Positions 18,357-60,608 of a stretch of DNA of 64,000 nt are shown here, one piece after another. Every line of letters starts with the position of its first letter. The first letter of the stretch is position 1. Where the stretch lies: NCBI GenBank assembly GCA_965116495.1, contig OZ220696.1, positions 1,504,001-1,568,000 on the forward strand. Direction: 5' to 3'. The translations under genes were made by a program, and so were the position numbers. Under the pieces are notes generated by a model. The model ran no database searches. It had not been told where the DNA came from and saw only the letters and a program-made list of their open reading frames with translations. Source of the DNA: Gammaproteobacteria bacterium. GTDB lineage: Bacteria > Pseudomonadota > Gammaproteobacteria > Eutrophobiales > Eutrophobiaceae.

Positions 18357-18395
18357 AATTCCTGCTTCCTAATTCCTAATTCTTAATTCCTAATT
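18357..18395. repeat. Heptamer tandem array (AATTCCT variants)
   Basis: About 5 units; contains the stop codon of the Dke1-like gene. Confidence 0.8.
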
Positions 18396-24728: not shown

Positions 24729-25079
24729 ATGCCTGAGTACCTAATCGCGCCGTCAATACTCTCCGCCGACATGGCCCGCCTGGGTGAGGAGGTGGAGACC
24801 GTCGTTGCCGCGGGCGCCGACTACATCCACGTGGATGTGATGGATAACCACTACGTGCCGAACCTGACGTTTGGCCTGGTGGCGGCGCACGCGCTGCGGG
24901 AACACGGTATTACCGCACCCCTGGACGTGCACCTGATGATTGAACCGGTGGACCGGATCATCCCGGACTTTGCCGCGGCCGGTGCGGATACGTTTGTGGC
25001 GGGTTCAGCGATATTCGGCAGCGCTGATTACGCCACCACTATCGCAGCGATGAGAGCAGCATTGACCACGGCAGGGTAA
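24729..25079 (+). pseudogene. rpe: Ribulose-phosphate 3-epimerase with large in-frame internal deletion
   Basis: [31 protein letters not shown] joined via AAAGAD to FVAGSAIF; 116 aa, about half the normal length. Confidence 0.85.
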
Positions 25080-25085
25080 CAGGCC

Positions 25086-25607
25086 ATGCTGTTGATGATT
25101 GACAATTACGATTCCTTTACCTACAACCTGGTTCAATACTTCGGCGAACTGGGCCAGGAGGTTGATGTCTACCGCAATGACCAGGTTTCCCCGGAGCGGA
25201 TCCACGAACTGGGGCCGGAACACATCGTGATCTCCCCGGGACTCTGCACACCGAGCGAAGCCGGCATATCGGTTGACGTGATCAACGAGTTCATGGATAA
25301 GGTCCCGATCCTGGGGGTGTGCCTGGGGCACCAGAGCATCGGCCAGGCATTGGGCGGACGCATCGTCCATGCCAACCGCATCATGCACGGCAAGACCTCT
25401 GACATACATCATCGAAATACGGATGTTTTTACCGGCCTGGACTGCCTGCAGGTGACGGCCTGGACCTGCTCTGAAGCTGGGGATGTCGATGAAATCATGG
25501 GAGTAAGGCACAAGAATTATCCCGTTTACGGCGTGCAGTTCCATCCCGAGTCGATCCTGACCACTTTCGGCCATGACCTGCTCAGGAATTTCCTGCAAAT
25601 CAACTAG
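25086..25607 (+). pseudogene. trpG: Anthranilate/aminodeoxychorismate synthase component II with internal deletion
   Basis: [18 protein letters not shown] and QFHPES present. The RYHSL segment is missing (FTGL joined to DCLQVTAW) and SPGP reads SPGL. Confidence 0.75.
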
Positions 25608-25618
25608 TGCGGAGGGCA

Positions 25619-26596
25619 ATGGCAAAGACTAATTCACAATCGTGCGTCAATACCTGGTCCACGGACAGCCTGGCGAAGAGCGACCGCTTCGATGCCTGGG
25701 CAACCGTTCTCAATGAGGCGTATGGCCGCTGGGAAATGGATCGGGCGCAGGCGCCCGACTTCTTCAGCCGCGTCAAGCATTACGACGACACCCTGCTGAA
25801 GGTCATTGAATGCACCTGCGACCCGTGCGGCGCGACCCGCACCCGCGCCAGCATCCGCGCCGACGGGCTGGAGAACCTGACCGTACAGGCGGTACTGGCT
25901 GGCCGGGAATATATCAACTTCAACGGCGAGGACATCCTACTGAAAGCAGGCGATCTCCTGATCTGGGACAGCACCCGGCCCATGACGTTCCAGGTGCAGA
26001 ACCGCTTGCACAAGATCTCCGTGATGCTGCCCTTGCCGCGCTTTCAATCCTGGCTGCCCCGCTCCTGGTTCTCCATTCGCCACTCGCTGGATGGGCAATC
26101 AAACAGCGGCCTGTTATTGACCAACCATATCAAATCACTGCGGGATTCGGTCTTCGACGGCGGCTGCAAGGACAACCATGCCTTGGTTGATGCGACCATC
26201 GGCGTGCTGGTCAACGCACTGGAGATGGGCAGCGCGGATGATCCGACCCCGCTGCGCGTCACCCAGTTACGCTATATCAAGGAATACATCCGGGCCAACA
26301 TTCGCGACCCTGAGCTGTCCCCGGCCTTGATCGCCAAGGCCGGCGGCATGTCCTCCCGTTACCTGCACTGGCTGTTCAATGCCAACGAGGATGAGGATAC
26401 GGTCAAACAGTATATTTTCCACCAGCGCCTGGACCTGTGCGCCCGTGACCTGTCGAATCCGCACATGAAACACAGGAAAATCTCCGATATTGCCTTCTAC
26501 TGGGGTTTCCAGGACACCGCCCATTTCAACAAACGCTTCAAGCAGCAGCACCAGTTGTCGCCGGGCGCGTTTCGGGAGAAGATGCAGAAGGATTAA
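25619..26596 (+). CDS. AraC-family regulator (AraC_binding_2, FeaR-like)
   Basis: WST...RF.AW N-terminus; DPELSP..IA...GMS.RYLH; ISDIAF.WGF.D.AHF; GGAGG RBS before ATG 25619. Confidence 0.9.
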   Translation: MAKTNSQSCVNTWSTDSLAKSDRFDAWATVLNEAYGRWEMDRAQAPDFFSRVKHYDDTLLKVIECTCDPCGATRTRASIRADGLENLTVQAVLAGREYINFNGEDILLKAGDLLIWDSTRPMTFQVQNRLHKISVMLPLPRFQSWLPRSWFSIRHSLDGQSNSGLLLTNHIKSLRDSVFDGGCKDNHALVDATIGVLVNALEMGSADDPTPLRVTQLRYIKEYIRANIRDPELSPALIAKAGGMSSRYLHWLFNANEDEDTVKQYIFHQRLDLCARDLSNPHMKHRKISDIAFYWGFQDTAHFNKRFKQQHQLSPGAFREKMQKD

Positions 26597-26747
26597 GAAT
26601 TAGGAATTAAGAATTACGAATTAGGAATTAAGAATTAGGAATTGGAGTTGTTGCATTACCGTGTTTCCTACTCCGGCCTGCGGAAGTTCTTTGATTAACA
26701 GGTAAACAGCCGCCACCGGCGGCACATTCATTCTTAATTCCTAATTC
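26591..26747. repeat. Heptamer array (AATTAGG/AATTAAG/AATTACG) with short inverted partner array
   Basis: About 7 units at 26591-26646; reverse-complement units TTCTTAATTCCTAATTC at 26731-26747. Confidence 0.8.
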
Positions 26748-26791
26748 ACAGTGATAAACTATTATGGCCTTTCCGGCCCCAGGGGAACAAC

Positions 26792-28747
26792 ATGACAAAA
26801 CCGCACAACACCCGTGAAGACAAACTGCTCGGCTTCGACGCCGATATCACCCGCCGGGATTTTATCGGCAGCACCATAATCGGCACCGGCGCCGGTTTGT
26901 TATACGCCAATGCGCCCGGTCTGATGCGCAGCGCAAACGCCCAGACGCTGCCTGTTCCCCTGACCGGCGTAGGTCCCGACTGGACCGGGCCCGGCGGCAT
27001 CGGCGACTACAGGGACGCAAACGGCAATACCCATCAGGTAATGAACGACGGCCACGGCATCCGCAATGGCGCCTACGAAAAAGCCTTCAAGGACGCTGTT
27101 GATTCCGGCGAAGTCTATGATCTGGTCGTAGTCGGCGGCGGTTTTGCCGGCCTCGCGGCCGCATACCGTTACCACGAGGACAGACCGGACGCGCCGGTAT
27201 TGATCCTGGACAACCATGCCATGTTTGGCGGGGAGGCCAAACAGAACGAGTTCGAAGTGGACGGCGTCCATTTATGGGCGCCGCAAGGCTCGAATGGCAG
27301 CGTATTCCCGCCCAACCGCACCAAGCCCATCGGCTGGCATCATGATTACTGGGACAAGCTGGGATTGCCCATGGAGTTTAAATACCAGGCCGCAAAAGGC
27401 CTGGACAAGGACCTGAAAATCCCCAGGGACGTGTACAGCCCCATGCACATCGCCTGGGAACACGCTGACCTGGCCCATTATCATGAAAACCATGGCATGG
27501 TGATGAACCCCTGGAACAGCGGATTCAAGGATGCACCGATAGCGGACAGCCTGAAGCGCGAGCTGTTGCAGATGGAGCTTTACAAGGATGTGCCGTACCG
27601 GAAGGAAGACTGGCACCACTGGCTGGACACCATGACCTATGAGGAGTTCCTGACCCGTTACGTAGGCGTCTCAAAAGAGGTGACGCCTTATCTCAACCCG
27701 CAGACTGCGGCCATGGGCTGCGGCCTGGGCGCAGACGTCATTTCCGCGTATTCCGCCTACGAGTTCGTCCAGCCCGGGGTGATTACCTACAAGCGCCATG
27801 CCGGCCTGGAAGACCCATCCGAGTATGTTTACCTGGCCAGTTTCCCGGGCGGCAACACGGGAATCGCCCGCCATTTCGTCAAGGCCATGATCCCGGCTGC
27901 CATCGAGGGGGATAACTCCCTGTCCGCGGTGCTGTTCAATAATATCAACTGGAACGAACTGGACCGGGCCGGCCAGCCTACGCGCATGCGCCTGTCCGCC
28001 ACCGTTGCCGGCGTTATGCACGACGGCTCGCCGAATTCCGCCAAAAGCGTATCGGTAATCTATTACCGGGACGGCAAACTGCACAAGGTCAAGGCGAAAA
28101 ACGTCGTTATGGCAAGCGGCCAGTGGGTGAACCGGTTGGTCTGCAAGGACCTGCCGCCAAAATACCAGGACGCCATGGCCACGTTCCACCATGCGCCCAT
28201 GCACACCGTCAACGTGGCGTTGCGCAACTGGAAGTTCCTGGAGAAACTGGGCGCGACTGCGGTACGCTGGTTCGAAGGTTACGGCTGGTTCTTCAGCATG
28301 CGCCGGCAGATGATCATCGACGGCAAGGAGCCCATGCCCCTGGACCCCTCCAAGCCGACAGTGCTCACCATGTACAACTCGTTCTGCAACCCGGGCATCC
28401 CCATGCCGCAGCAGGCAACCACAGCCCGCATGCAGTTGTTCGGCCTGTCTTATGCAGACGTAGAACGCGGGGTGCGAGAGCAATTCACCAAAATGTTTTC
28501 GGAGTACGGCTTCGACGCCAAACGCGATATCGCCGGCATCGTATCAAACCGCTGGGGACATGCTTACGTCGTATCGCCGCCCGGGTTTTATTACGGCAAA
28601 CACGGCGAACCGTCAGCCAGTGACGTTATCCGCGAGCCACACGGCCGTATTGCCTTCGGCCATTCCGAACTGACCGGCGCCCAGCTCTGGGGGACGGCCG
28701 CGGAAGAAGGAGCGCGGGCGGCCAGCCAGGCTCTGGATATGACGTAG
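26792..28747 (+). CDS. Tat-exported FAD-dependent oxidoreductase, spermidine dehydrogenase (SpdH)-like
   Basis: ITRRDFIG, VVVGGGFAGL, ILDNH..FGGEAK.NEF, FPGGN.GIAR, NRWGHAY. Confidence 0.8.
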   Translation: MTKPHNTREDKLLGFDADITRRDFIGSTIIGTGAGLLYANAPGLMRSANAQTLPVPLTGVGPDWTGPGGIGDYRDANGNTHQVMNDGHGIRNGAYEKAFKDAVDSGEVYDLVVVGGGFAGLAAAYRYHEDRPDAPVLILDNHAMFGGEAKQNEFEVDGVHLWAPQGSNGSVFPPNRTKPIGWHHDYWDKLGLPMEFKYQAAKGLDKDLKIPRDVYSPMHIAWEHADLAHYHENHGMVMNPWNSGFKDAPIADSLKRELLQMELYKDVPYRKEDWHHWLDTMTYEEFLTRYVGVSKEVTPYLNPQTAAMGCGLGADVISAYSAYEFVQPGVITYKRHAGLEDPSEYVYLASFPGGNTGIARHFVKAMIPAAIEGDNSLSAVLFNNINWNELDRAGQPTRMRLSATVAGVMHDGSPNSAKSVSVIYYRDGKLHKVKAKNVVMASGQWVNRLVCKDLPPKYQDAMATFHHAPMHTVNVALRNWKFLEKLGATAVRWFEGYGWFFSMRRQMIIDGKEPMPLDPSKPTVLTMYNSFCNPGIPMPQQATTARMQLFGLSYADVERGVREQFTKMFSEYGFDAKRDIAGIVSNRWGHAYVVSPPGFYYGKHGEPSASDVIREPHGRIAFGHSELTGAQLWGTAAEEGARAASQALDMT

Positions 28748-28749
28748 TT

Positions 28750-28791
28750 AATTACGAATTAGGAATTAGGAATTAGGAATTAGGAATTAGG
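28750..28791. repeat. Heptamer array, left arm
   Basis: AATTACG followed by five AATTAGG. Confidence 0.9.
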
Positions 28792-29157
28792 GATGAATTT
28801 TGCTTCTTTCTGTCTCATTGTTTTGGTGATTGAGCCAGATAGTTTTAGAAGTTCCTCACAGTCTGCGACAACGGGGTTGATCTGTGCAGGTGTGAGTATG
28901 CCTGAATCCCGGAGTAAACGGAGCCAGTAGTGTGTTTCCCGGGCTTCCTTATAGGCAATGCTCATCTTGGAAATAAAATCCTTTGTTGACTGACCGCCGA
29001 TGGCCTCTTCCACGTTTGCGCCAATAGAGGTACCACTGCGAACCACCTGCTTTGACAAAACAAATTCCTTTTTCTCCTCTCGCAAATGACGGTAAACTTT
29101 CATAATACTCAGCGAAAAAGCATACGATTTTTCGCGTACAGGATTGTCCATTTTCAT
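28780..29157 (-). CDS. Four-helix-bundle protein (23S rRNA IVS protein / Avd-like fold family)
   Basis: KSY.F, LSKQVVRSGTSIGANVEEA, DFISKMSIAYKEARETHYWLRLL; probable start ATG 29157. Confidence 0.92.
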   Translation of the reverse strand: MKMDNPVREKSYAFSLSIMKVYRHLREEKKEFVLSKQVVRSGTSIGANVEEAIGGQSTKDFISKMSIAYKEARETHYWLRLLRDSGILTPAQINPVVADCEELLKLSGSITKTMRQKEAKFIPNS

Positions 29158-29185
29158 CCTTGACTCACTCCAATTCGTAGTCCCC

Positions 29186-29259
29186 AATTCCTAATTCGTA
29201 ATTCCTAATTCGTAATTCGTAATTCCTAATTCGTAATTCCTAATTCCTAATTCGTAATT
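29186..29259. repeat. Heptamer array, right arm (inverted relative to left arm)
   Basis: 10 units of AATTCCT/AATTCGT, plus one more unit at 29172. Confidence 0.9.
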
Positions 29260-30590
29260 GTATTTATCACCTTGCGTACCGTGTCGAAGGTCTGGTCAAG
29301 CAGGTCCGGCGTGAATGTTAAAAACGGCGAGAACGCCAGGGTATCCATGCCGTGGCGCACCATCAGTCCCTGCTCAAAACATTTGACGTGGGCTTCCATT
29401 CCCCGGGCGCCCGGCGCGCCGGGACGCGGTTTCATTTCGATGGCGCCCATCAGGCCGAAATTACGTACGTCTATGACGTGGGGGGCATTCCGCAAGTCAT
29501 GCAACGCGGACTCAAAAATCGGTTCAAGCTCTCTCACCCTGGCGCCAATATCTTCCTCAACATAAATATCCAGCGCGGCGAGGCCTGCGGCTGCGGCTAC
29601 CGGGTGACCCGAATAGGTATAACCGTGGAAAAACTCGATGGCATGCTCGGGACCGTTCATGAAACTCCGGTAGATGTCATCACTGACCAGCACCGCGCCC
29701 ATGGGAATGACCCCGTTGGTAATCCCCTTGGCCGTGGTGATGATATCCGGCATCACGCCGAAGCGCTGGCAGCCGAATGGCGCGCCGATGCGATGGAACG
29801 CGGTAATCACTTCGTCAAATATCAGCAGGATACCGTGCTGCGTACAGATTTCCCGCAGGCGCTCCAGGTAACCCAGGGGTGGCACCAGCACGCCGGCTGA
29901 GCCGGATACGGGCTCCACGATTACCGCTGCAATATTTTCCGCATCATGCAACGCGACAATGCGTTCCAGTTCGTCGGCCAGGTGCCGGCCCCACTTGGGC
30001 TGGCCCTTGCTGAAGGCATTATGTTCCAGGTCAAGGACGTGGGGAAGATGGTCTACGTTCGGTAGCATGGCGTTGCCGAACATCTTGCGGTTTCCCGGGA
30101 TACCGCCCACCGACATCCCGCCGAAGTTGACACCATGGTAACCTCTCTCTCGCCCGATCAGCTTGATCCGGGTCCCGTCCCCGCGCACCCGGTGCCAGCC
30201 CAAGGCAATCTTCAAAGCGGTGTCTACGGCTTCCGAACCGGAATTGGTGAAGAACACATGGTCAAACCCGTCCGGCGCGAAATTGATTACCTTCTCTGCC
30301 AGTTCGAACGCCCCGGTATGGCCCACCTGGAAGGCTGCAGCGTAATCCAGCCTGGCAACCTGGTCCTGCACCGCCTTGACGATCCTGGGATGGCAGTGGC
30401 CCAGGCCGGTGCTCCATAACCCTGAAAAGGAATCCAGGACAGTCCGCCCTTCCCGGGTCCGGTAATAAAACCCCTGAGCGGACTCGATGATACGCGGGTC
30501 GTTCTTGAAGGCGCGATTCGCCGTATAGGGCAGCCAGTATGGCTCCAGGTTCAACTTAGTGCCGGTAACCGGCTTTGCAATATCGTCCAT
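29247..30590 (-). CDS. Omega-amino acid:pyruvate aminotransferase (class III, BauA-like)
   Basis: FFTNSGSEAVDTALK, YHGVNFGG, LIFDEVIT, TTAKG, HGYTYSGHP. Confidence 0.93.
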   Translation of the reverse strand: MDDIAKPVTGTKLNLEPYWLPYTANRAFKNDPRIIESAQGFYYRTREGRTVLDSFSGLWSTGLGHCHPRIVKAVQDQVARLDYAAAFQVGHTGAFELAEKVINFAPDGFDHVFFTNSGSEAVDTALKIALGWHRVRGDGTRIKLIGRERGYHGVNFGGMSVGGIPGNRKMFGNAMLPNVDHLPHVLDLEHNAFSKGQPKWGRHLADELERIVALHDAENIAAVIVEPVSGSAGVLVPPLGYLERLREICTQHGILLIFDEVITAFHRIGAPFGCQRFGVMPDIITTAKGITNGVIPMGAVLVSDDIYRSFMNGPEHAIEFFHGYTYSGHPVAAAAGLAALDIYVEEDIGARVRELEPIFESALHDLRNAPHVIDVRNFGLMGAIEMKPRPGAPGARGMEAHVKCFEQGLMVRHGMDTLAFSPFLTFTPDLLDQTFDTVRKVINTITN

Positions 30591-52488: not shown

Positions 52489-55400
52489 TCATTCCACCCC
52501 GGCATTCAATCTATCAAATATTTTTTTCATCATCAGTTCCTTGACAAGTCCTCCAAACGGTTGGTCTTCAATAATCTTTTCAAATATCTCCTGGTTCTGG
52601 TCCATTCTGTCAATCAGCTTGTCGATGAATATTTCTTCAAATGCGTATTTGAAGGTATCCAGTTTATTGACCCTGGCCTGGGTTTGCAGTTTGGCGTCCT
52701 GCATCAATTCTGTTTCTATCTGCTCAAAGAAAAGTCGGTCGGCTTCCTCAAACTCGGTGCCGAAACGGTCATTCAATACATCGATGATTTCTGATAAGGC
52801 CGCTTTCTCTTCTTTGCCGCGCTTGATGCCGGCTTCCGTCAAACCATCCAGTTCGCCTTCTTCGCCGGCTACCAGGTCGATAGAGCCATCATTGATTTTT
52901 TTCAGGCGATAGTATTCCAGGGCCACCTCATCGGTCAGCTTCATGCTTTCCGATAAATCGCGCTTCGGCAGCTTGGTCAGAAGCAATTTGGCATAGGCAT
53001 AGAACTTCTCAAACTCAACTTCACGAAAGGGCATGATCTGGGCCATGAAGGCATACAAATTGGTCCAGGTACGCAAACTCTTTTTGAACGCTTCCTGTTC
53101 CTCTTGCGTTTCGAGATTCTTATAACGATCTACCGCCGGGTCGATATGGCGGTATAACCGGGCCTGTGCGCCCGCGGTCATTCGTGTCGCCGGATTGAAA
53201 TACACCCTGGCCAGCGCGTCGACCTCCGTATCCAGGTAAATTTGCTGCTCGTCAAGTTTGGTCTTCAGGTCATACAGGTGGTTGGGCTCCGGCTCGTCGG
53301 TGACGGTCGTTATTTCGTAATAAGGCTGAAACGAATCCAGGATCGTCTGCCGGTCATTGACGAAATCCAGAATAAAGGTATCCTCTTTCCCCGGCGCGGT
53401 CCGGTTCAGGCGTGACAGGGTTTGTACCGCCCTGACACCGGCCAAGGCCTTGTCCACGTACATGGTATGCAGTAAAGGCTGGTCGAAACCGGTCTGGAAT
53501 TTATCTGCCGCAATCAGGATCTTGTAATCATCTTCGGCAAATTTCTGTGGGAGTTCTTTTTCACTGTAGCCCGTCAACTGTGGTTCCGTCACTCCTTCCG
53601 GAAAGTTGTCATCCTTTACCTTGCCGGAAAAGGCCACCAGAATTTTGATGTGTTGTTCGTAGCCATTTTTGTTGATATAGCGTTCAAGCTCTTCAAAGTA
53701 ACGTTTTGCGTGGAGACGTGAACCAGTTACCAACATGGCCTTGGCTTTTCCGCCAATCTTGCCGGCGACTACCTGCCGGAAATGTTCGACGATGATTTCT
53801 GTCTTCTGCGCCAGGTTATGCGGGTGCAGCGAGACAAAACGCCCCATCGCCTGTACGGCTTTCTTCTTGTTTAGCTTGGGGTCGTCTGCTATTGCCTTGC
53901 ACAGGTTGAAGTAGAGTTGATAGGTGGTGTAATGCTGCAATACATCCAGGATAAAGCCCTCTTCAATGGCCTGCCGCATTGAGTACAGGTGAAACGGTTG
54001 CGGCTTTCCCTGGGCATCTTTATAACCGAATACCGCCAGCGTTTTGTATTTTGGCGTCGCAGTAAAGGCAAAAAAGGACAAGTTGGATTGCGGCCCGCGA
54101 CTGGCGGCAGATTGTTCAATATAGTCAGTGACCATATCCTGTGAATCTATCCCTTCGTCTTCTTCCTCCTCGGCGGGTCCCGGATACGGTTCCTGCGCTT
54201 TCGATGAACCGTCGTCAGTCTCTTCCAACGCATTGGTATTACCCAACACCTGCTTCATCTTTTTGCTGGCTTCACCACCTTGTGAGCTATGGGCCTCGTC
54301 AATGATCACCGCATAGTTGCGGTCCGGAAGACTGCCCACCTTCTCGACGATAAACGAGAATTTCTGCAGCGTCGTAATGATGATATTTGCCCCACCGCCA
54401 ATGGCATCGGCCAGTTGCTGTGAGTCTTTATCGATGCGCTGTACCACACCTGATTTATGTTCAAACTGGTAGATGGTGTTTTGCAGTTGGGAATCCAGCA
54501 CCCGCCGGTCTGTCACCACAATCACGCTGTCAAAAATCCGTTGATCATCGGCATTGTGCAGACCGGATAAGCGGTAGGACAGCCAGGCGATGGAATTGCT
54601 TTTGCCGGAACCGGCTGAATGCTGGACCAGGTAATTCCGGCCCGCGCCATGCTCCTGCGCATGGCGGGTGATTTTCCGTACGGCATCCAACTGGTGGTAA
54701 CGCGGGAAAATCAGTGTTTCCTTTTTGCGGGTGCGTCCTTCAAACTCAAACTCTTCCGTCTGCAAGTGGATAAAGCGCCCGATGATCTCCAGCCAGCTTT
54801 CTTTGCTGAGAATGTCGCGCCACAGGTAATCGCTGCGATAGCCTGCCGGGTTGGGCGCATTGCCGGCGCCGTGGTGGTGGCCTTTGTTGAACGGCAACCA
54901 ATTGGTTTTGCCGCCATCAACGCGTGTGGTCATGTAAACGGCTTCATCATCCACCGCAAAGTGCACCAGGGCGCGTTTTCTGAAAGCAATCAACAACTCT
55001 TTATTATCGCGGGTGGCGCCGTACTGTTTTTTTGCATCTGCGGTACTTTGCCCGGTAAAGCGATTCTTCAATTCCAACGTCGCTACCGGCAGACCGTTCA
55101 GCGACAACACCAAATCCACCGAATTCCTGTTTTTCCCGCTGTAATAGACCTGCCGAATCACCTTGAGCCGATTCTGTTCATACAGCGCAAGCGTATCCGG
55201 GTTCAAGCCCGATTCCGGCTTGAAAAAAGCCATTTTAAAACGCACACCGTAATCGACAAAGCCATTGCGGATCACATCCAGCGCCCCGCGCAAGTCCATC
55301 TCCTTATATAGCCGTCCAACGATACGGTCGGATACATCCTCCCCATGAATCGCCGCAAGCCTGTCCCACTGTCTGGCCTGGGTCGTCTGCAAGAACTGTA

Positions 55401-55530
55401 ATACCTCCGCCTTGAACATGCCCAGTTCCGGGCTGTAGGCGCCGGCTTCGCCTTCGTGGTAACCCCCTGAAGCTACCAGGCTTTCAATGATGGCGGTTTC
55501 AAAGGTATTTTCGGACGTGACCTCCATCAA
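52489..55530 (-). CDS. hsdR: Type I restriction endonuclease subunit R
   Basis: DLVL.LNGLP...ELK, QHSAGSGKS, DEAH, FTATP, QTLSRLNR. Confidence 0.95.
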   Translation of the reverse strand: MMEVTSENTFETAIIESLVASGGYHEGEAGAYSPELGMFKAEVLQFLQTTQARQWDRLAAIHGEDVSDRIVGRLYKEMDLRGALDVIRNGFVDYGVRFKMAFFKPESGLNPDTLALYEQNRLKVIRQVYYSGKNRNSVDLVLSLNGLPVATLELKNRFTGQSTADAKKQYGATRDNKELLIAFRKRALVHFAVDDEAVYMTTRVDGGKTNWLPFNKGHHHGAGNAPNPAGYRSDYLWRDILSKESWLEIIGRFIHLQTEEFEFEGRTRKKETLIFPRYHQLDAVRKITRHAQEHGAGRNYLVQHSAGSGKSNSIAWLSYRLSGLHNADDQRIFDSVIVVTDRRVLDSQLQNTIYQFEHKSGVVQRIDKDSQQLADAIGGGANIIITTLQKFSFIVEKVGSLPDRNYAVIIDEAHSSQGGEASKKMKQVLGNTNALEETDDGSSKAQEPYPGPAEEEEDEGIDSQDMVTDYIEQSAASRGPQSNLSFFAFTATPKYKTLAVFGYKDAQGKPQPFHLYSMRQAIEEGFILDVLQHYTTYQLYFNLCKAIADDPKLNKKKAVQAMGRFVSLHPHNLAQKTEIIVEHFRQVVAGKIGGKAKAMLVTGSRLHAKRYFEELERYINKNGYEQHIKILVAFSGKVKDDNFPEGVTEPQLTGYSEKELPQKFAEDDYKILIAADKFQTGFDQPLLHTMYVDKALAGVRAVQTLSRLNRTAPGKEDTFILDFVNDRQTILDSFQPYYEITTVTDEPEPNHLYDLKTKLDEQQIYLDTEVDALARVYFNPATRMTAGAQARLYRHIDPAVDRYKNLETQEEQEAFKKSLRTWTNLYAFMAQIMPFREVEFEKFYAYAKLLLTKLPKRDLSESMKLTDEVALEYYRLKKINDGSIDLVAGEEGELDGLTEAGIKRGKEEKAALSEIIDVLNDRFGTEFEEADRLFFEQIETELMQDAKLQTQARVNKLDTFKYAFEEIFIDKLIDRMDQNQEIFEKIIEDQPFGGLVKELMMKKIFDRLNAGVE

Positions 55531-57209
55531 TCCACGCGCCAGGTTCTTACCGCCTGGTCAGCAAGCCAGGATTGATAATGGTTCAGGTTTGCCAGGTCCC
55601 AATGATCATATTCGGCCACTTTCCTGGCCAGCCTGAAAGGAGTCTTCAGGTAATGCACTTTCTTGGCGTCAAAGTCAGCCTGTCCGAGATCATCCTGTTC
55701 CAGCAACACCATATTGCCCAACCGGTCTGCAATGTCATTCGCCCCCTCGCCAAAATCCTGGTGCCACGCCTGCTCCGGATTGTAAGGACAAACGTGCTCA
55801 AGCGTCGTATCGAGGTATCTCACGTTACGACCTGCGTTATTTTCTATCTCGGCCAGCAAAAAGCGGATTTTTTTGGATGAGCGGCGGCTTGGCATTTTGT
55901 AGTACTCAAAGATATTTTTGAATGCCTCATCAGCCGGGTAGAGCGCCTGGTAATCGGGGCTGTTCTTGATATGGCTGGCGCGCTGAAATTCCCCTTCGGC
56001 TATCTTTATGGCTATGTTGTTATAACGTTTTTCCTGTTCGCTGGGGGAAAAACTGCAAATCACGTTGTAGCGGATAGATAAGACGTAAAGATATTTCAGC
56101 GTTTTAATAAACTCATCCGGCGAGAAATCCCGAAGAAATGCCGCCATTAATATCGTATAGGGTTGTCGGATACCAAACAGCTTCAAGCCATCCAGGAAAT
56201 GAACGGCCTCCCGGTATTTGCCGTCTTCCTGTTGCCACCACTCATCATAAGGGTTGGATAAAGACGCATAGACCGGAACCGCCTCCGTTAATGCTCTTAA
56301 ATAGCCATGCGCATTTTCGGGTGTTCTGTAAAGCTGCCTGACGGATTTAAACAACTCCTTCTTGCTTACCAGGGGACGATGGGAATTATGCTGGTAGCGG
56401 ACAAAATCAGTGAAGTCATTTTCGCCCAGTTGCGTCAGGATAGCTGACCATGTTTCATCAAGCTCATCCAGCATTTCGTCGGGCACGTCATCATTTTGGG
56501 TGACTACCGAAAAAATATAGTTTTTCAACAAATCAGGCGTGGAAAGCTGCACTCCCCTGGCATTTAATGTTTCAAATACCTTGTAAGCATTCAGGCTGTC
56601 TTGCACCACAATTTTTGTAAAAATCAACCTGGATGAAAAGCTGTTGATAAACTCACCGATTTCCTCGCCAGTGTTACCTGTGTTTTTGTCGCAGAAAAAA
56701 TTGAATGCCCATCTCAGCAGGTTGTTGGTTGCGGTAATGCCCCGGACCTGGGGCGGACGCAGGTTGGAACAGATATCTTTGTAGAAACGCCCATTATTGC
56801 GGTTCAGCGTCAGCCTGCTGCTCACTCTTAATGAGACGATGTCTTTCGACCCGATATAGCGCCCGGTAATTTCCTGCAAACGTTCCAGGTTGTTTTCGGC
56901 ATCTTCATTGTTATCGATTAAGCGCTGAATATGTTGCATCGTGGCCAAGACCAACAAAGACAGTGTAACCAGGCGTTGTTGTCCGTCTATCACCTCAAAA
57001 TCCTGCTGGCTTTTACGTTGCAACACGATATAGCCCATATAGTGGAAGCCTTCCTGGTCCAGACCTTCGATATCCGCCCACAGGTCTTCCCACTGTTCCT
57101 GTTCCCACGAGTAATCCCGCTGGAAACGCGGCACAGTATATTTAACCCCGTTACTCAGCAGCTCGGAAAAGGTCTGGTTGGCAGGTTCCATTAGCATAAA
57201 TTCGCTCAT
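55527..57209 (-). CDS. DUF262 + DUF1524 protein (GmrSD-like)
   Basis: PRFQRDYSW, IDGQQR, FETLNARG; C-terminal LEHVCP...LGNMVLL. Confidence 0.88.
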   Translation of the reverse strand: MSEFMLMEPANQTFSELLSNGVKYTVPRFQRDYSWEQEQWEDLWADIEGLDQEGFHYMGYIVLQRKSQQDFEVIDGQQRLVTLSLLVLATMQHIQRLIDNNEDAENNLERLQEITGRYIGSKDIVSLRVSSRLTLNRNNGRFYKDICSNLRPPQVRGITATNNLLRWAFNFFCDKNTGNTGEEIGEFINSFSSRLIFTKIVVQDSLNAYKVFETLNARGVQLSTPDLLKNYIFSVVTQNDDVPDEMLDELDETWSAILTQLGENDFTDFVRYQHNSHRPLVSKKELFKSVRQLYRTPENAHGYLRALTEAVPVYASLSNPYDEWWQQEDGKYREAVHFLDGLKLFGIRQPYTILMAAFLRDFSPDEFIKTLKYLYVLSIRYNVICSFSPSEQEKRYNNIAIKIAEGEFQRASHIKNSPDYQALYPADEAFKNIFEYYKMPSRRSSKKIRFLLAEIENNAGRNVRYLDTTLEHVCPYNPEQAWHQDFGEGANDIADRLGNMVLLEQDDLGQADFDAKKVHYLKTPFRLARKVAEYDHWDLANLNHYQSWLADQAVRTWRVD

Positions 57210-58507
57210 GCGGTTGCCTCCTGGGTTGGTAATTCCGGTACTTTAATCTTGCCTGTGACTACCTCGGAAATCAACGCGGTTCGGTATTCTTTCTGGAGTT
57301 CGATGATGCGTTGGGTTTTGGTGATTTTGGTGTCTATGCGGGCGGTTTCGGTTTTAATATATTGAACAATGGCAGTTTGCTCTTTTGGCGATGGAATAAT
57401 AACTTCTAAACTGCCAATGGCATCTTGTGAGATAGTGCTCATTGTTGTTGTAATTGATAAAGAAATCAGTTTATGTCTCAACAAATCAGAATTTAGGTAA
57501 TAGTTTAAATATTGATGGGCTATGTCTTCAGGAGTGACCTTTATAAGATGACATTCAAAAACAATCGATTCATTTCTCCCTTCAAGGCATGCTGTCTTTG
57601 CTATACCCTCTCGTTTCAACGATGATCTGACAAAAAAAATGTCTCCGGCAATTACCTCGTATTTAGTTACCTCACTTGCAGTACACGCAACTCTTTCCAG
57701 TGAGCTTTCATCAATTAAAAAGTTATGTGTATAAACATCACCAACATTGATCAGTTTAATTCCACTACCAAAATCTGTGGATTTCTTAAAAATACCGTTT
57801 TGTAAACCGTGTTTAGTTACATACTTCAGATTCTTAAGCTTCCACCCCACCGGAATTTCGCCTAACCACTCAACCCCGCTATCTTTGAGTTCTGCGTTGG
57901 GGTCGAGGCCTTTGGTGACGGCGTGGTTGATAATGGCGGTCTTTTCTTCCTCGTACAGTTCCAGTAAACGCTCTTTTTGGGCGATCAGCGCATCAACCTC
58001 TGCTGTCTTGCGGTCAAGAAAGTTGGCGATGGTGGTTTGTTCCTCCAGCAAAGGCCACGGAATGAATAGATTGCAAATAGCTTCAACCGAAAGCCCCGGC
58101 TGTGCCGCAGCAACAGAATATTGATTCAGATTCATAATGCGTAATACTTCACCCAGCCAAACAAGTTTGTAATTCGATAGTGGTTCAACTACAACAGCAT
58201 GATCAGTAGCCCAAAACTTATTGGCTGGATAATTAATATTTCCGCAAAGAGCACCTTGGCGGCCTATTAGAATGAAGTCACCTTCATGGGTAAATTCATG
58301 GTAATAACCACGAAGTCCATTTCCGCCATATACTGGATATGCGCCATCTTCTTTAATTTGATTAGATGTTAAATTATCGCCGGATTTTAGATTTGCAACA
58401 TACTTCAACTTCTTAATTTCCCAGTCCATCGGAATCTCCCCAATCCAGCCAATCCCACTATCCTTCATTAACGGATAATGTCTAATGGAAAATTCTGAAT
58501 TTTGCAT
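57206..58507 (-). CDS. hsdS: Type I R-M specificity subunit S
   Basis: Two KDSG..W.GEIP conserved repeats, EQ..I..F/Y helices, two AT-rich TRDs. Confidence 0.93.
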   Translation of the reverse strand: MQNSEFSIRHYPLMKDSGIGWIGEIPMDWEIKKLKYVANLKSGDNLTSNQIKEDGAYPVYGGNGLRGYYHEFTHEGDFILIGRQGALCGNINYPANKFWATDHAVVVEPLSNYKLVWLGEVLRIMNLNQYSVAAAQPGLSVEAICNLFIPWPLLEEQTTIANFLDRKTAEVDALIAQKERLLELYEEEKTAIINHAVTKGLDPNAELKDSGVEWLGEIPVGWKLKNLKYVTKHGLQNGIFKKSTDFGSGIKLINVGDVYTHNFLIDESSLERVACTASEVTKYEVIAGDIFFVRSSLKREGIAKTACLEGRNESIVFECHLIKVTPEDIAHQYLNYYLNSDLLRHKLISLSITTTMSTISQDAIGSLEVIIPSPKEQTAIVQYIKTETARIDTKITKTQRIIELQKEYRTALISEVVTGKIKVPELPTQEATA

Positions 58508-58776
58508 TATTGGACTCTCAGTTTACTGCGCACCCGAAAGCCAACCGCCAGAATCATCTCCAGCGAATAGTGGATAACCTGATATTTCTTTCCGTCAGCG
58601 GCAGTTGTAAAGTAATTCTTTACAACTGAATGTTCATCTAACTCCCTTTCATTCAGTATGTTAGCGACATGTTGCCCCTGGCTCATCCAGACCATGCCAT
58701 CCCGCGCATGGAGCTCGACACTGGCCTTGCCGTCTGCGGTGTTATAAATAATGATATTTTGCTGTTCCTGGTTCAT
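58507..58776 (-). pseudogene. Truncated RhuM-family protein
   Basis: IIIY.T.DG, VW.SQ, TTAADGK.Y....YSL.MILAVGFRV.S; lacks the LAELF helix and the C-terminal two-thirds. Confidence 0.75.
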
Positions 58777-60608
58777 TCCAGCACCTTCTTTTCCAGTTCC
58801 AGGCTGCTTTCTTCCAAGGCCAGGATATCGGCCTTGATCTCGGCCAGAGAGCGCAGAGGTTTGAACTCGTAAAAGTATTTGGTGAAGTTAATCTCATAGC
58901 CCGTTTTAGTCTTGCTCTCGTCAATCCAAGCATCGGGAAGATGTGGTTTGACCTCGTGCTGGAAATATTCATCGATGCTTTGCGGGATCAATTTACCGCC
59001 AGCATCTTCAGGGTCTTTTCGCAAAAACGGAATGTTCTCGTAGTCCCTCAGGCTGGTATCCGCTTTGGGTGAGCCGTCACGCCCGGTGACAATGGCGCCG
59101 TTTTCATCTTTTTGTGGTCGCTCAACCACCACGCGCCAGTAGCCAAAAAATTCATTCGGCAGGATCTTCACGAAATCGTTTTCTGCAAAATCGCCATAGA
59201 GTCTGGTGATAAAGCCGATCCCTTTAGCTTCGCCGTTTTCTGCTACCTGCTTGCGTTTGTTGCCCAGTGAACGCGGCATTCTCTCCCAGAAGCGGTTGAA
59301 ACTGCGTTCGCCGGATTGCATCAGTTCTTCATCCTTGTTGCCGGTGGCGTTGATCAGTTGTAACTTGCCTTTGCGCTCGGCGCTTTTGTGGTTGTTCAGT
59401 ATCCAGACGTAGGTGGAAATGCCGGTATTGTAGAACAGTTGATCCGGCAGGGCGATAATCGCTTCCAGCCAGTCGTTTTCGATAATCCACTGACGGATGT
59501 TGCTCTCGCCGCTGCCGGCCTGGCCGGTAAACAGGGGAGAACCGTTAAAGACAATCCCGATACGACTGCCGCCAGGTTCTTCCGGTTTCCGTGGCGGGGG
59601 TTTCGTTTTGCTGATCATGTGCTGCAAGAACAGTAACGAACCGTCATTAATGCGCGGCAACCCTGCGCCGAAACGTCCGGCATGGCCTTGGTTGTCGTGT
59701 TCGTCGGCAATGATTTTTTTTGCTTTTTTCCAGTCCACGCCAAAGGGTGGATTGGACAGCATGTAATCAAACCGTTCATCCCGCAGACCATCTATCGTAA
59801 ATGTATTGCCGAACTTGATATTGGCGGGGTTTTGCCCCTTGATCAGCATGTCGGATTTGCAGATGGCGTAGGACTCCGGGTTGATCTCCTGGCCGAACAC
59901 CTCCAGCCTGGCGTCAGGGTTGAACTCCTTGAGGCGCTGTTCGCCGATGGAGAGCATGCCGCCGGTGCCGCAGGCAGGATCGTAGAGTGTTTTGACGATA
60001 CCGGCCTGGGTCAGTGATTGGCTGTCCGCGTTGAACAGCACGTTCACCATCAGTTTGATCACCTCTCTGGGGGTGAAATGCTCCCCGGCCGTCTCGTTGG
60101 ATTGTTCCGCAAAGCGCCGGATCAAGTCTTCAAACACATAGCCCATTTGCATGGAATCCATCCCGGCCAGATCAATCCCGGCAAACCTCTTTACCACCTG
60201 AAACAGGATATCCGCCTTGGGATCATCCATGCGTTCAATCTGGTCATCAAAGTTGAAATACTCAATAATCTCCCGGGCCGAAGCCGAATAGCCATTGATA
60301 TGGTTGCGCAGGTTGGCCGCCACGTGGTTGGGGTCAGCCACGATTTTTGCAAAATCAAACGGGCTGCGGTTATGGAAATTGACCCCGGCAATTTTGTTCA
60401 AGGTGAGGTCTTTGGCGCTGTCGGAGAATTTTTCCACCCGGGGCAAATAATCAAGGACTTTTTGTTTGGTGGGCGCCAGCACGCAATCCAGACGGCGTAA
60501 CACCGTCATCGGCAGGATAACCTTGCCATAATCAGACTGCTTGTAATCACCGCGCAACAGGTCAGCCACATCCCAGATAAGGTTGGCTTTATCCTTGAAA
60601 TCTGTCAT
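58773..60608 (-). CDS. hsdM: Type I R-M methyltransferase subunit M
   Basis: GEHFTPREV, YDPACGTGGML, NPPF. Confidence 0.95.
   Translation of the reverse strand: MTDFKDKANLIWDVADLLRGDYKQSDYGKVILPMTVLRRLDCVLAPTKQKVLDYLPRVEKFSDSAKDLTLNKIAGVNFHNRSPFDFAKIVADPNHVAANLRNHINGYSASAREIIEYFNFDDQIERMDDPKADILFQVVKRFAGIDLAGMDSMQMGYVFEDLIRRFAEQSNETAGEHFTPREVIKLMVNVLFNADSQSLTQAGIVKTLYDPACGTGGMLSIGEQRLKEFNPDARLEVFGQEINPESYAICKSDMLIKGQNPANIKFGNTFTIDGLRDERFDYMLSNPPFGVDWKKAKKIIADEHDNQGHAGRFGAGLPRINDGSLLFLQHMISKTKPPPRKPEEPGGSRIGIVFNGSPLFTGQAGSGESNIRQWIIENDWLEAIIALPDQLFYNTGISTYVWILNNHKSAERKGKLQLINATGNKDEELMQSGERSFNRFWERMPRSLGNKRKQVAENGEAKGIGFITRLYGDFAENDFVKILPNEFFGYWRVVVERPQKDENGAIVTGRDGSPKADTSLRDYENIPFLRKDPEDAGGKLIPQSIDEYFQHEVKPHLPDAWIDESKTKTGYEINFTKYFYEFKPLRSLAEIKADILALEESSLELEKKVLE

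Follow-up and report, generated by a model that had tools for sequence, protein, structure and literature searches.

What is a gene for a small four-helix-bundle protein doing between inverted arrays of a seven-base repeat, at the junction of two protein genes, and do gene and arrays spread together? The question is raised by positions 28750..29259 of the window, a stretch of 64,000 nucleotides from a gammaproteobacterial genome (4.34 Mb, here called G000), which was compared with the other genomes of the genus (G001, G007 and so on; 23 genomes with G000). An earlier note, made from the letters alone, had described a ~125-aa bundle gene between six heptamers on the left and ten inverted heptamers on the right, and had proposed that the whole might be a minimal mobile cassette. 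The cassette and its neighbours are composed as follows:

26792..28747, plus strand: left neighbour, an FAD/NAD(P)-binding oxidoreductase of 651 aa, with no NCBIfam family above cut-off
28750..28791, plus strand: left arm, six heptamers, one AATTACG followed by five AATTAGG (6.0 copies by TRF)
28780..29157, minus strand: four-helix-bundle gene (S23p/IVP, TIGR02436/PF05635), 125 aa
29164..29171, minus strand: putative Shine-Dalgarno-like GGAGTGAG, close 5' of the cassette gene's start codon and within the predicted loop
29172..29259, minus strand: right arm, ~11 heptamers and one degenerate unit, the reverse complement of the left arm
29247..30590, minus strand: right neighbour, the omega-aminotransferase AptA (NF052567, 690 bits)

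The described layout is borne out, except that the right arm holds ~11 units instead of ten: its tandem part at 29186-29259 comprises 10.6 copies of AATTC(C/G)T, and the degenerate unit lies at 29172-29182. The cassette gene and aptA share a strand, and oxidoreductase and aptA are convergent. The oxidoreductase stop codon ends 2 nt short of the left arm, the TAA of the cassette gene (28780-82) lies inside the left arm, and the TAG of aptA (29247-49) lies inside the right arm, which has replaced the ancestral last codons of aptA. The arrays do supply both of the latter stops, as the earlier note had it; this is to be expected, since runs of AATTAGG, CCTAATT and CGTAATT hold stop codons in all three frames. 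The proposed pairing of the arms into a long stem with the gene in its loop is likewise upheld. Specifically, the arms are 93% complementary over 45 nt, and the transcript strand folds into a terminal stem of ~40 bp at -157.8 kcal/mol (z -6.3), with none of 100 shuffles as good. No transposase gene is present within the cassette, and an Rfam search of 26400-29400 returned only one chance-level match, away from it. A promoter scan of 28600-29400 on the strand of the cassette gene found none, and our guess is that the gene is transcribed by read-through from aptA. The RNA-library run X23 yielded a 325-nt contig over 28888-29212 with 2 differences and most flank bins uncovered, but DNA carry-over is possible in this run; the contig demonstrates neither transcription nor rank.

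The encoded protein belongs to a very large family (at least 7,999 homologues scored) and scores 104.9 bits against TIGR02436 (cut-off 24) and 94.8 bits against PF05635 (cut-off 33.8). It is basic (pI 9.5), no catalytic domain was detected in it, and its gene has a GC content of 44%, compared with 58-60% in the neighbours. The gene is the only copy of the family in G000, where tblastn found no paralogue. A structure model consists of four helices (pLDDT 91.9) and matches in Foldseek the five-chain structure of BT_0352 (2RLD; 51% identity, TM 0.83, E 3.6e-8), as well as Xcc0516 (2GSC; TM 0.74). A weaker match to Avd of diversity-generating retroelements (DGRs) (4DWL; TM 0.69, 16% identity) agrees with the earlier statement that the family shares this fold. 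After 2RLD, with its five chains and 51% identity, and 2GSC, the cassette protein probably forms a homopentameric ring. The available text of 10.1101/2023.10.23.563531 describes Avd as a positively charged pentamer in which all five protomers touch an RNA stem-loop, and of the cassette protein we predict that it assembles into a basic five-part ring and binds its own repeat. Purifying selection acts on its gene, with a dN/dS of 0.23 between G000 and G007.

The arms belong to a family that is dispersed through the genome. G000 holds 104 arrays of the AATTA(C/G)G-type unit, 76 of which form 38 inverted pairs; a gene lies in one pair alone, the cassette, and the other 37 are gene-less, so heptamer arms are not peculiar to the bundle gene. 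The arrays are not due to chance either, as 2 Mb of order-5 Markov simulation produced no run of at least three perfect units, of which the genome has 62. Among the 40 close opposite pairs, 38 face left-to-right (inward) and 2 right-to-left. Loops of the 38 pairs measure 6-391 nt, with 18 of them between 75 and 100 nt. By crude gene calls, all 46 of the 3' gene ends facing a pair fall inside an arm or within 20 nt of it, and 21 of these genes have their stop within the arm; by the same calls, 22/32, 19/29, 10/16 and 6/21 gene ends lie within 20 nt of four other hairpin families of G000. Gene-less pairs stand flush with stop codons and replace other intergenic DNA, and a check for target duplication found a direct flank match of at least 3 bases outside the palindromic AATT at 1 of the 38 pairs. 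Two further elements of the family lie in the window:

18357..18395, no strand assigned: lone unpaired arm of the AATTA(C/G)G heptamer, at a gene end
26588..26746, no strand assigned: gene-less pair with arms around an 83-nt loop, a member of a paralogous loop family

This family of ~83-nt loops comprises 15 near-full-length copies in G000 (mean identity 64% among the 11 aligned), has a near-constant length and a terminal GC-rich hairpin, and occurs also in G022, G015 and G005. The copy at 26588-26746 has no real match in Rfam, and the family profile matches nothing in 85 homologue loci; the loop could be a structured RNA or a relic of another cargo. The idea that gene-less loops are remnants of the bundle gene was rejected, as a DNA profile of its homologues matches none of the 37 other loops; elsewhere in G000 the profile gives one weak 38-nt match. 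Two kinds of apparent support were also set aside. Array lengths (median 6 units, range 3-24) are too loose to count as pentamer-sized, and the position-wise conservation of units is partly circular, since units were phased on AATT. Other observations on the genome concern a heptamer pair at G000:C1:2158953-2159332, whose loop contains a nested ~270-nt MITE-like element with 29-nt terminal inverted repeats, and a perfect, unpaired array of ~22 copies of the unrelated heptamer GACCGCA at G000:C1:680693-680852. In the window, two short and apparently internally deleted ORFs of 116 aa and 173 aa, which we take to be rpe-like and trpG-like, lie at 24729-25607, and the minus strand of 52489-60608 carries a type I restriction-modification-like cluster, judged by ORF sizes and N-terminal sequences.

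The junction between oxidoreductase and aptA is where the history of the cassette can be followed. The two genes are adjacent in 15 of the 23 genomes of the genus; the other 8 show no adjacency or reach a contig end. Among the 14 congeners with the junction, one carries the gene flipped, two have arms only and 11 have no AATTA arms. Specifically, G007 holds the bundle gene in opposite orientation (88% amino-acid identity), and in G022 and G016 the arms are fused and the loop is absent, with junction bases identical to those of G000. The 11 arm-less congeners have short spacers or other hairpin elements at this position, and 10 of them retain the ancestral ending of aptA, whereas in G000 and G007 the arms join aptA at one and the same Ile codon. 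The empty sites that the earlier note advised looking for are thus present in most of these genomes, and syntenic fixation of the gene, which would have told against mobility, is contradicted by the flipped, arms-only and empty states. The filled genomes at the junction are not monophyletic: they fall in three places of the aptA tree, and AU tests reject both a clade of the four filled genomes (p-AU 4.9e-7) and one of G000, G022 and G016, which share identical junction bases (p-AU 3.6e-6), the groups having been defined by junction state and the tree having been seen before testing. On the far side of the oxidoreductase (26596-26792), five congeners have 3-8 kb of extra DNA between the oxidoreductase and an AraC gene, and in G019 and G014 this DNA contains a Y1 transposase gene; G000 has the gene-less heptamer pair alone there.

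Divergence at the locus indicates that the gene itself moves sideways between species. Between G000 and G007, dS is 0.22 for the cassette gene, compared with 1.02 for aptA and 0.71 for the oxidoreductase. Contigs from 8 of 24 listed sequencing runs were furthermore compared with the G000 locus, and a ~99% identical gene was found in four other runs; in the three of DNA type (X5, X7 and X9) its flanks are ~90% identical. Gene contigs differ from G000 at 3/450 positions in X5, 1/253 and 2/224 in X7, and 5/440 in X9 (13 gap columns), compared with 46/497, 41/398, 26/329 and 28/342 in examples of flank contigs from the three runs (about 6-10% or more); several of the flank positions listed have a base other than that of G000 throughout the covering depth. 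Among the differences listed, those closest to the cassette in X5 and X7 lie at 28720 and 29277, so that the shared tract is limited to roughly the cassette. Contigs end at the arms, so where the gene sits in X5, X7 and X9 is inferred from depth and from overlap of the arms. The gene contig has about single-copy depth in four runs of one study, and joints with readable inserts mostly contain the loops of other pairs; one inserted loop at a contig joint is absent from the G000 assembly. No excised circle, amplification or in-population inversion was seen among these contigs, which leave the arms unphased and so speak neither for nor against such forms. The proposal that gene and arrays spread as a unit gains support from the junction states, the non-monophyly, the low dS of the gene and the near-identical genes beside diverged flanks.

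Are the gene-less pairs exchanged in the same manner? Arrays were sampled, not taken as complete sets, in G022, G015 and G005; of the sites that could be placed, 18/30, 14/27 and 6/10, respectively, are also filled in G000, and the unfilled ones are mostly occupied by another hairpin family. Neither these unfilled sites nor nine G000 sites inspected in up to five congeners revealed a clean pre-insertion site with a target duplication. Six distinct orthologous sites have homologous gene-less loops, which are in opposite orientation at three of them; one G022 loop matches another G000 site at 90% and the site orthologous to it at 69%. Gene-less loops are 94% identical where the flanks beyond 100 nt are 82-83% identical, which is suggestive of element-specific transfer. 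This candidate was dropped under a genome-wide control: near-identical loops with diverged flanks number 5/14, compared with 1/14 for other intergenic regions, which is not significant (p 0.08), and an earlier control at 67% intergenic identity was too lenient for the comparison. In 200 kb of G022 away from arrays, 101 of 478 third-position windows reach an identity of 94% or higher with G000, which indicates extensive recent recombination between the two species. Lateral exchange of loops is therefore real, but given these genome-wide recent tracts and p 0.08 it is not demonstrated to be element-driven. Along loci L588-L597, G000 and G022 share many tracts of 95-100% identity despite an rpoB identity of ~85%.

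Arrays and gene also occur apart. Six genomes of the genus are array-rich and three of the 23 have the bundle gene; no match to TIGR02436/PF05635 was found in the array-rich G005, G015, G016 and G022, which are 97-100% complete. In the gene-less G022 there is a young subfamily of loops that resemble two loops of G000 at 85-96%. Near-homogeneous right arms of more than 100 nt stand at loci L213 and L215 of the gene-less G005, where arms have expanded without the gene. Conversely, a distant homologue in G001 has its own heptamer unit, which in G001 is confined to the neighbourhood of the gene, and this unit is dispersed in G003 (36 matches) and G014 (13), both of them without the gene. The heptamer flanking the G001 gene is of AAAACYA type (G001:C4:517600-518070, L003), and a third heptamer family, GGGGCCA-like, is found at junctions in G014 and G018.

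The association nevertheless extends far beyond the genus. Of 79 GTDB homologue loci examined, 76 had enough flank, and 39 of these lie between inverted 7-mer arms; among metagenomic or viral ones it is 43 of 70 (81 examined), compared with 0 of 266 control ORFs taken from homologue loci. Such arrays are commoner beside homologues than around control ORFs, which is what the earlier note had expected of a true association, and arms kept around homologues across phyla lend further weight to gene and arrays spreading as a unit. Periods of 5, 6, 8 and 9 are absent from the GTDB set, and period 8 occurs at 1/70 loci of the metagenome set. Across 196 loci, units within one mismatch of AATTA(G/C)G are found at 67 of 88 paired loci with at least 50% protein identity and at 1 of 17 below 35%. 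By these sequence comparisons the heptamer unit tracks the protein subfamily, which is no proof of recognition, since kin share units and shared descent alone could suffice. Arm polarity is reversed at 6 of the 88 paired close homologue loci; one such locus, with the homologue inside its reversed arms, is on a viral contig (L426:290-690). The bundle gene stands beside 1 of 119 viral array loci, with 39 of these loci having short flanks only, and most arrays on the IMG/VR contigs (L332-L450) are single or same-orientation repeats, with no inverted partner or gene.

The available data are compatible with a model, held with slightly more belief than doubt, in which the cassette, which at one junction may be in place, inverted, stripped to its arms or missing, moves sideways by host recombination through its arms and encodes a ring protein that binds the repeat. 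The arms would provide 40-75 nt of near-perfect homology amid DNA that is 85-90% identical, and host recombination would cross over there. Crossovers within the arms would swap the loop alone, between species or between sites; pairing of an arm with its partner would flip the loop, and hairpin deletion would remove it. What would make the arms tolerable is that they provide stop codons along with a stem of terminator-like or RNase III type, as rRNA intervening sequences do. Most speculatively, the protein may help to seed new arms, in which case array-rich genomes without the gene would be former hosts; such seeding we regard as conceivable but doubtful. That the protein is the binding partner of the heptamer repeat appears likely, if only just. 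The broader claim of the earlier note, that it may bind or propagate the heptamer arrays, draws only indirect support, from the tracking of units with subfamilies and from purifying selection, and is weakened by the array-rich genomes lacking the gene, by G001 lacking dispersed arrays and by the 118 of 119 viral array loci that lack it. A wider version, tentative and on balance unlikely, would hold for S23p/four-helix-bundle proteins in general: their rings would bind their own seven-base unit and non-enzymatically promote seeding and a cassette-sized 'homing' through host recombination, which would make intervening sequences, orphan arrays and cassettes one class.

Four other explanations were considered. 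The gene might be a passive passenger, captured long ago and unrelated to the repeat, that lies within terminator-like hairpins born by slippage, as of the Xanthomonas kind, and spreads by ordinary homologous recombination in a genus that recombines freely. The genome-wide mosaicism of G000 and G022 agrees with this, as do arrays that persist and diversify without the gene, the many other hairpin families at the same junctions in other species, and the enrichment of convergent junctions (12/37 vs 387/2494, p 0.008). Yet neutral capture should lose the arms, and it counts against it that in many phyla homologues have kept their arms, nearly always of period 7 and with a unit that follows the subfamily, as does purifying selection on the gene, so that we consider it improbable. 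That the cassette goes back to one insertion in an ancestor, was passed on vertically and has since been lost many times over is barely credible: hairpin loops delete easily and the same aptA Ile codon marks the arm junction in G000 and G007, but 10 of the 11 arm-less genomes keep the ancestral aptA ending, the AU tests speak against such a history, and the gene has a fifth to a third of the dS of its neighbours, with 99% identical copies beside flanks of ~90% identity. The contrasts in dS and read mapping largely refute this explanation.

Alternatively, the protein could serve the host as an RNA regulator. Much as TRAP does, its ring could bind heptamer runs transcribed at gene ends throughout the genome and control mRNA processing or stability, with its own arms serving autoregulation. 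Gene ends lie closer to heptamer pairs than to the four other hairpin families, arrays have a median of 6 units, Avd-type proteins bind RNA, and there is the RNA-library contig at 28888-29212, subject to possible DNA carry-over. Such a regulator is nonetheless distinctly improbable, as close relatives have unrelated elements in place of these species-specific sites, the gene occurs in so few genomes of the genus, and loops are freely flipped and deleted. Finally, the pairs could be non-autonomous elements mobilised in trans, whether by a reverse transcriptase or by a Y1 transposase of RAYT type, with the gene as cargo; the REPIN-like layout, with 38 of 40 pairs facing left-to-right, and the intact Y1 gene and broken reverse transcriptase of G000 are in its favour. 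Its probability is very low given that none of the 27 Y1 loci present across the 23 genomes is flanked by heptamer arms (one locus has two degenerate 2-unit matches), that the intact Y1 gene of G000 is flanked by a different palindrome, and that the reverse transcriptase is interrupted and has no array nearby. Movement of the cassette by host recombination through its arms, with a protein that binds the repeat, is the explanation that we carry forward.

These findings join two orphans, a large protein family of unknown function and bacterial seven-base arrays for which the available literature describes no mechanism, and the cassette names a concrete protein-sequence pair for them. The congener series offers comparative evidence of how, at one site, loops are acquired, inverted, exchanged and lost in such units, and of how the last codons of neighbouring genes are rewritten in the process. 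The contribution of this locus is its within-genus evidence; under the wider version above, the genus would be a case in which lateral same-site transfer, flipping, loop exchange and loss are all visible. Should the protein be a mere passenger, the finding would be an AT-rich variant of known heptamer hairpins with a cargo like that of intervening sequences. A literature search, covering main texts and few subscription journals, returned no paper linking TIGR02436/PF05635 to inverted heptamer arrays outside rRNA.

How does the cassette compare with known systems? Intergenic heptamers have been described in Xanthomonas and Nostoc, where GGGAATC units often form convergent inverted pairs at stop codons, 70 of them in Xcc (PMC4692102), and in Beggiatoaceae, with the unit TAACTGA (PMC4679880). 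As far as these available texts go, the repeats share with the present family their location near or overlapping stops, a variable number of units and the lack of a known mechanism, and in a term search neither main text mentions a helix-bundle or intervening-sequence protein. The AT-rich unit of the cassette is unable to form a G-quadruplex, and it is tied to the bundle gene. With Avd, BT_0352 and Xcc0516 the cassette protein shares the four-helix-bundle fold (TM 0.69-0.83) and its basic character, the solved relatives being five-chain assemblies. The adjacent reverse transcriptase of a DGR Avd module is absent, since the RVT_1 matches of G000 are interrupted and lie 2.6 Mb away. The locus is not a MITE or insertion sequence either: it has no transposase and no target-site duplication, and intergenic DNA is replaced.

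REPINs are closer in layout. In the available text of PMC3116915 they are gene-less inverted doublets with a spacer, extragenic and hairpin-forming, alongside a single-copy gene flanked by the same repeat; the heptamer pairs are likewise over-represented, inverted and extragenic doublets with one prevailing orientation (38 left-to-right vs 2 right-to-left). Unlike in REPIN-RAYT systems, the gene encodes a non-catalytic four-helix bundle in place of an HUH/Y1 transposase, tandem 7-mers make up the arms where those systems have REP palindromes, and the cassette gene is laterally mobile and often missing, whereas REPIN-RAYT systems are, in the sources available, described as mostly vertical. G000 has its own intact RAYT-like Y1 gene at G000:C1:403100-404500, and the inverted repeat that flanks it has a core present 103 times across G000; this is likely an ordinary REPIN-RAYT system beside the heptamer family.

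The nearest counterpart in content is the S23p intervening sequence (IVS) that Coxiella burnetii and Leptospira carry in 23S rRNA, for which the available text of PMC4990558 reports an S23p/PF05635 ORF, a 28-bp stem and RNase III, as well as tandem GACAGAT heptamers in variable number upstream of the start codon. Judged by that text, both elements have one S23p ORF in the loop of a terminal stem, carry heptamers, are sporadic and horizontally moved, and replace a pre-existing small hairpin. The cassette has the stem of terminal arms around its S23p ORF (~40 bp, z -6.3), but it lies between two protein genes and not in rRNA, and it differs from the intervening sequences so described in that both arms are pure heptamer arrays, that it has 37 gene-less relatives and that its gene is under purifying selection. 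Taken together, these comparisons suggest that the cassette works like an S23p-bearing intervening sequence placed at a protein-gene junction and is laid out like a member of a REPIN family.
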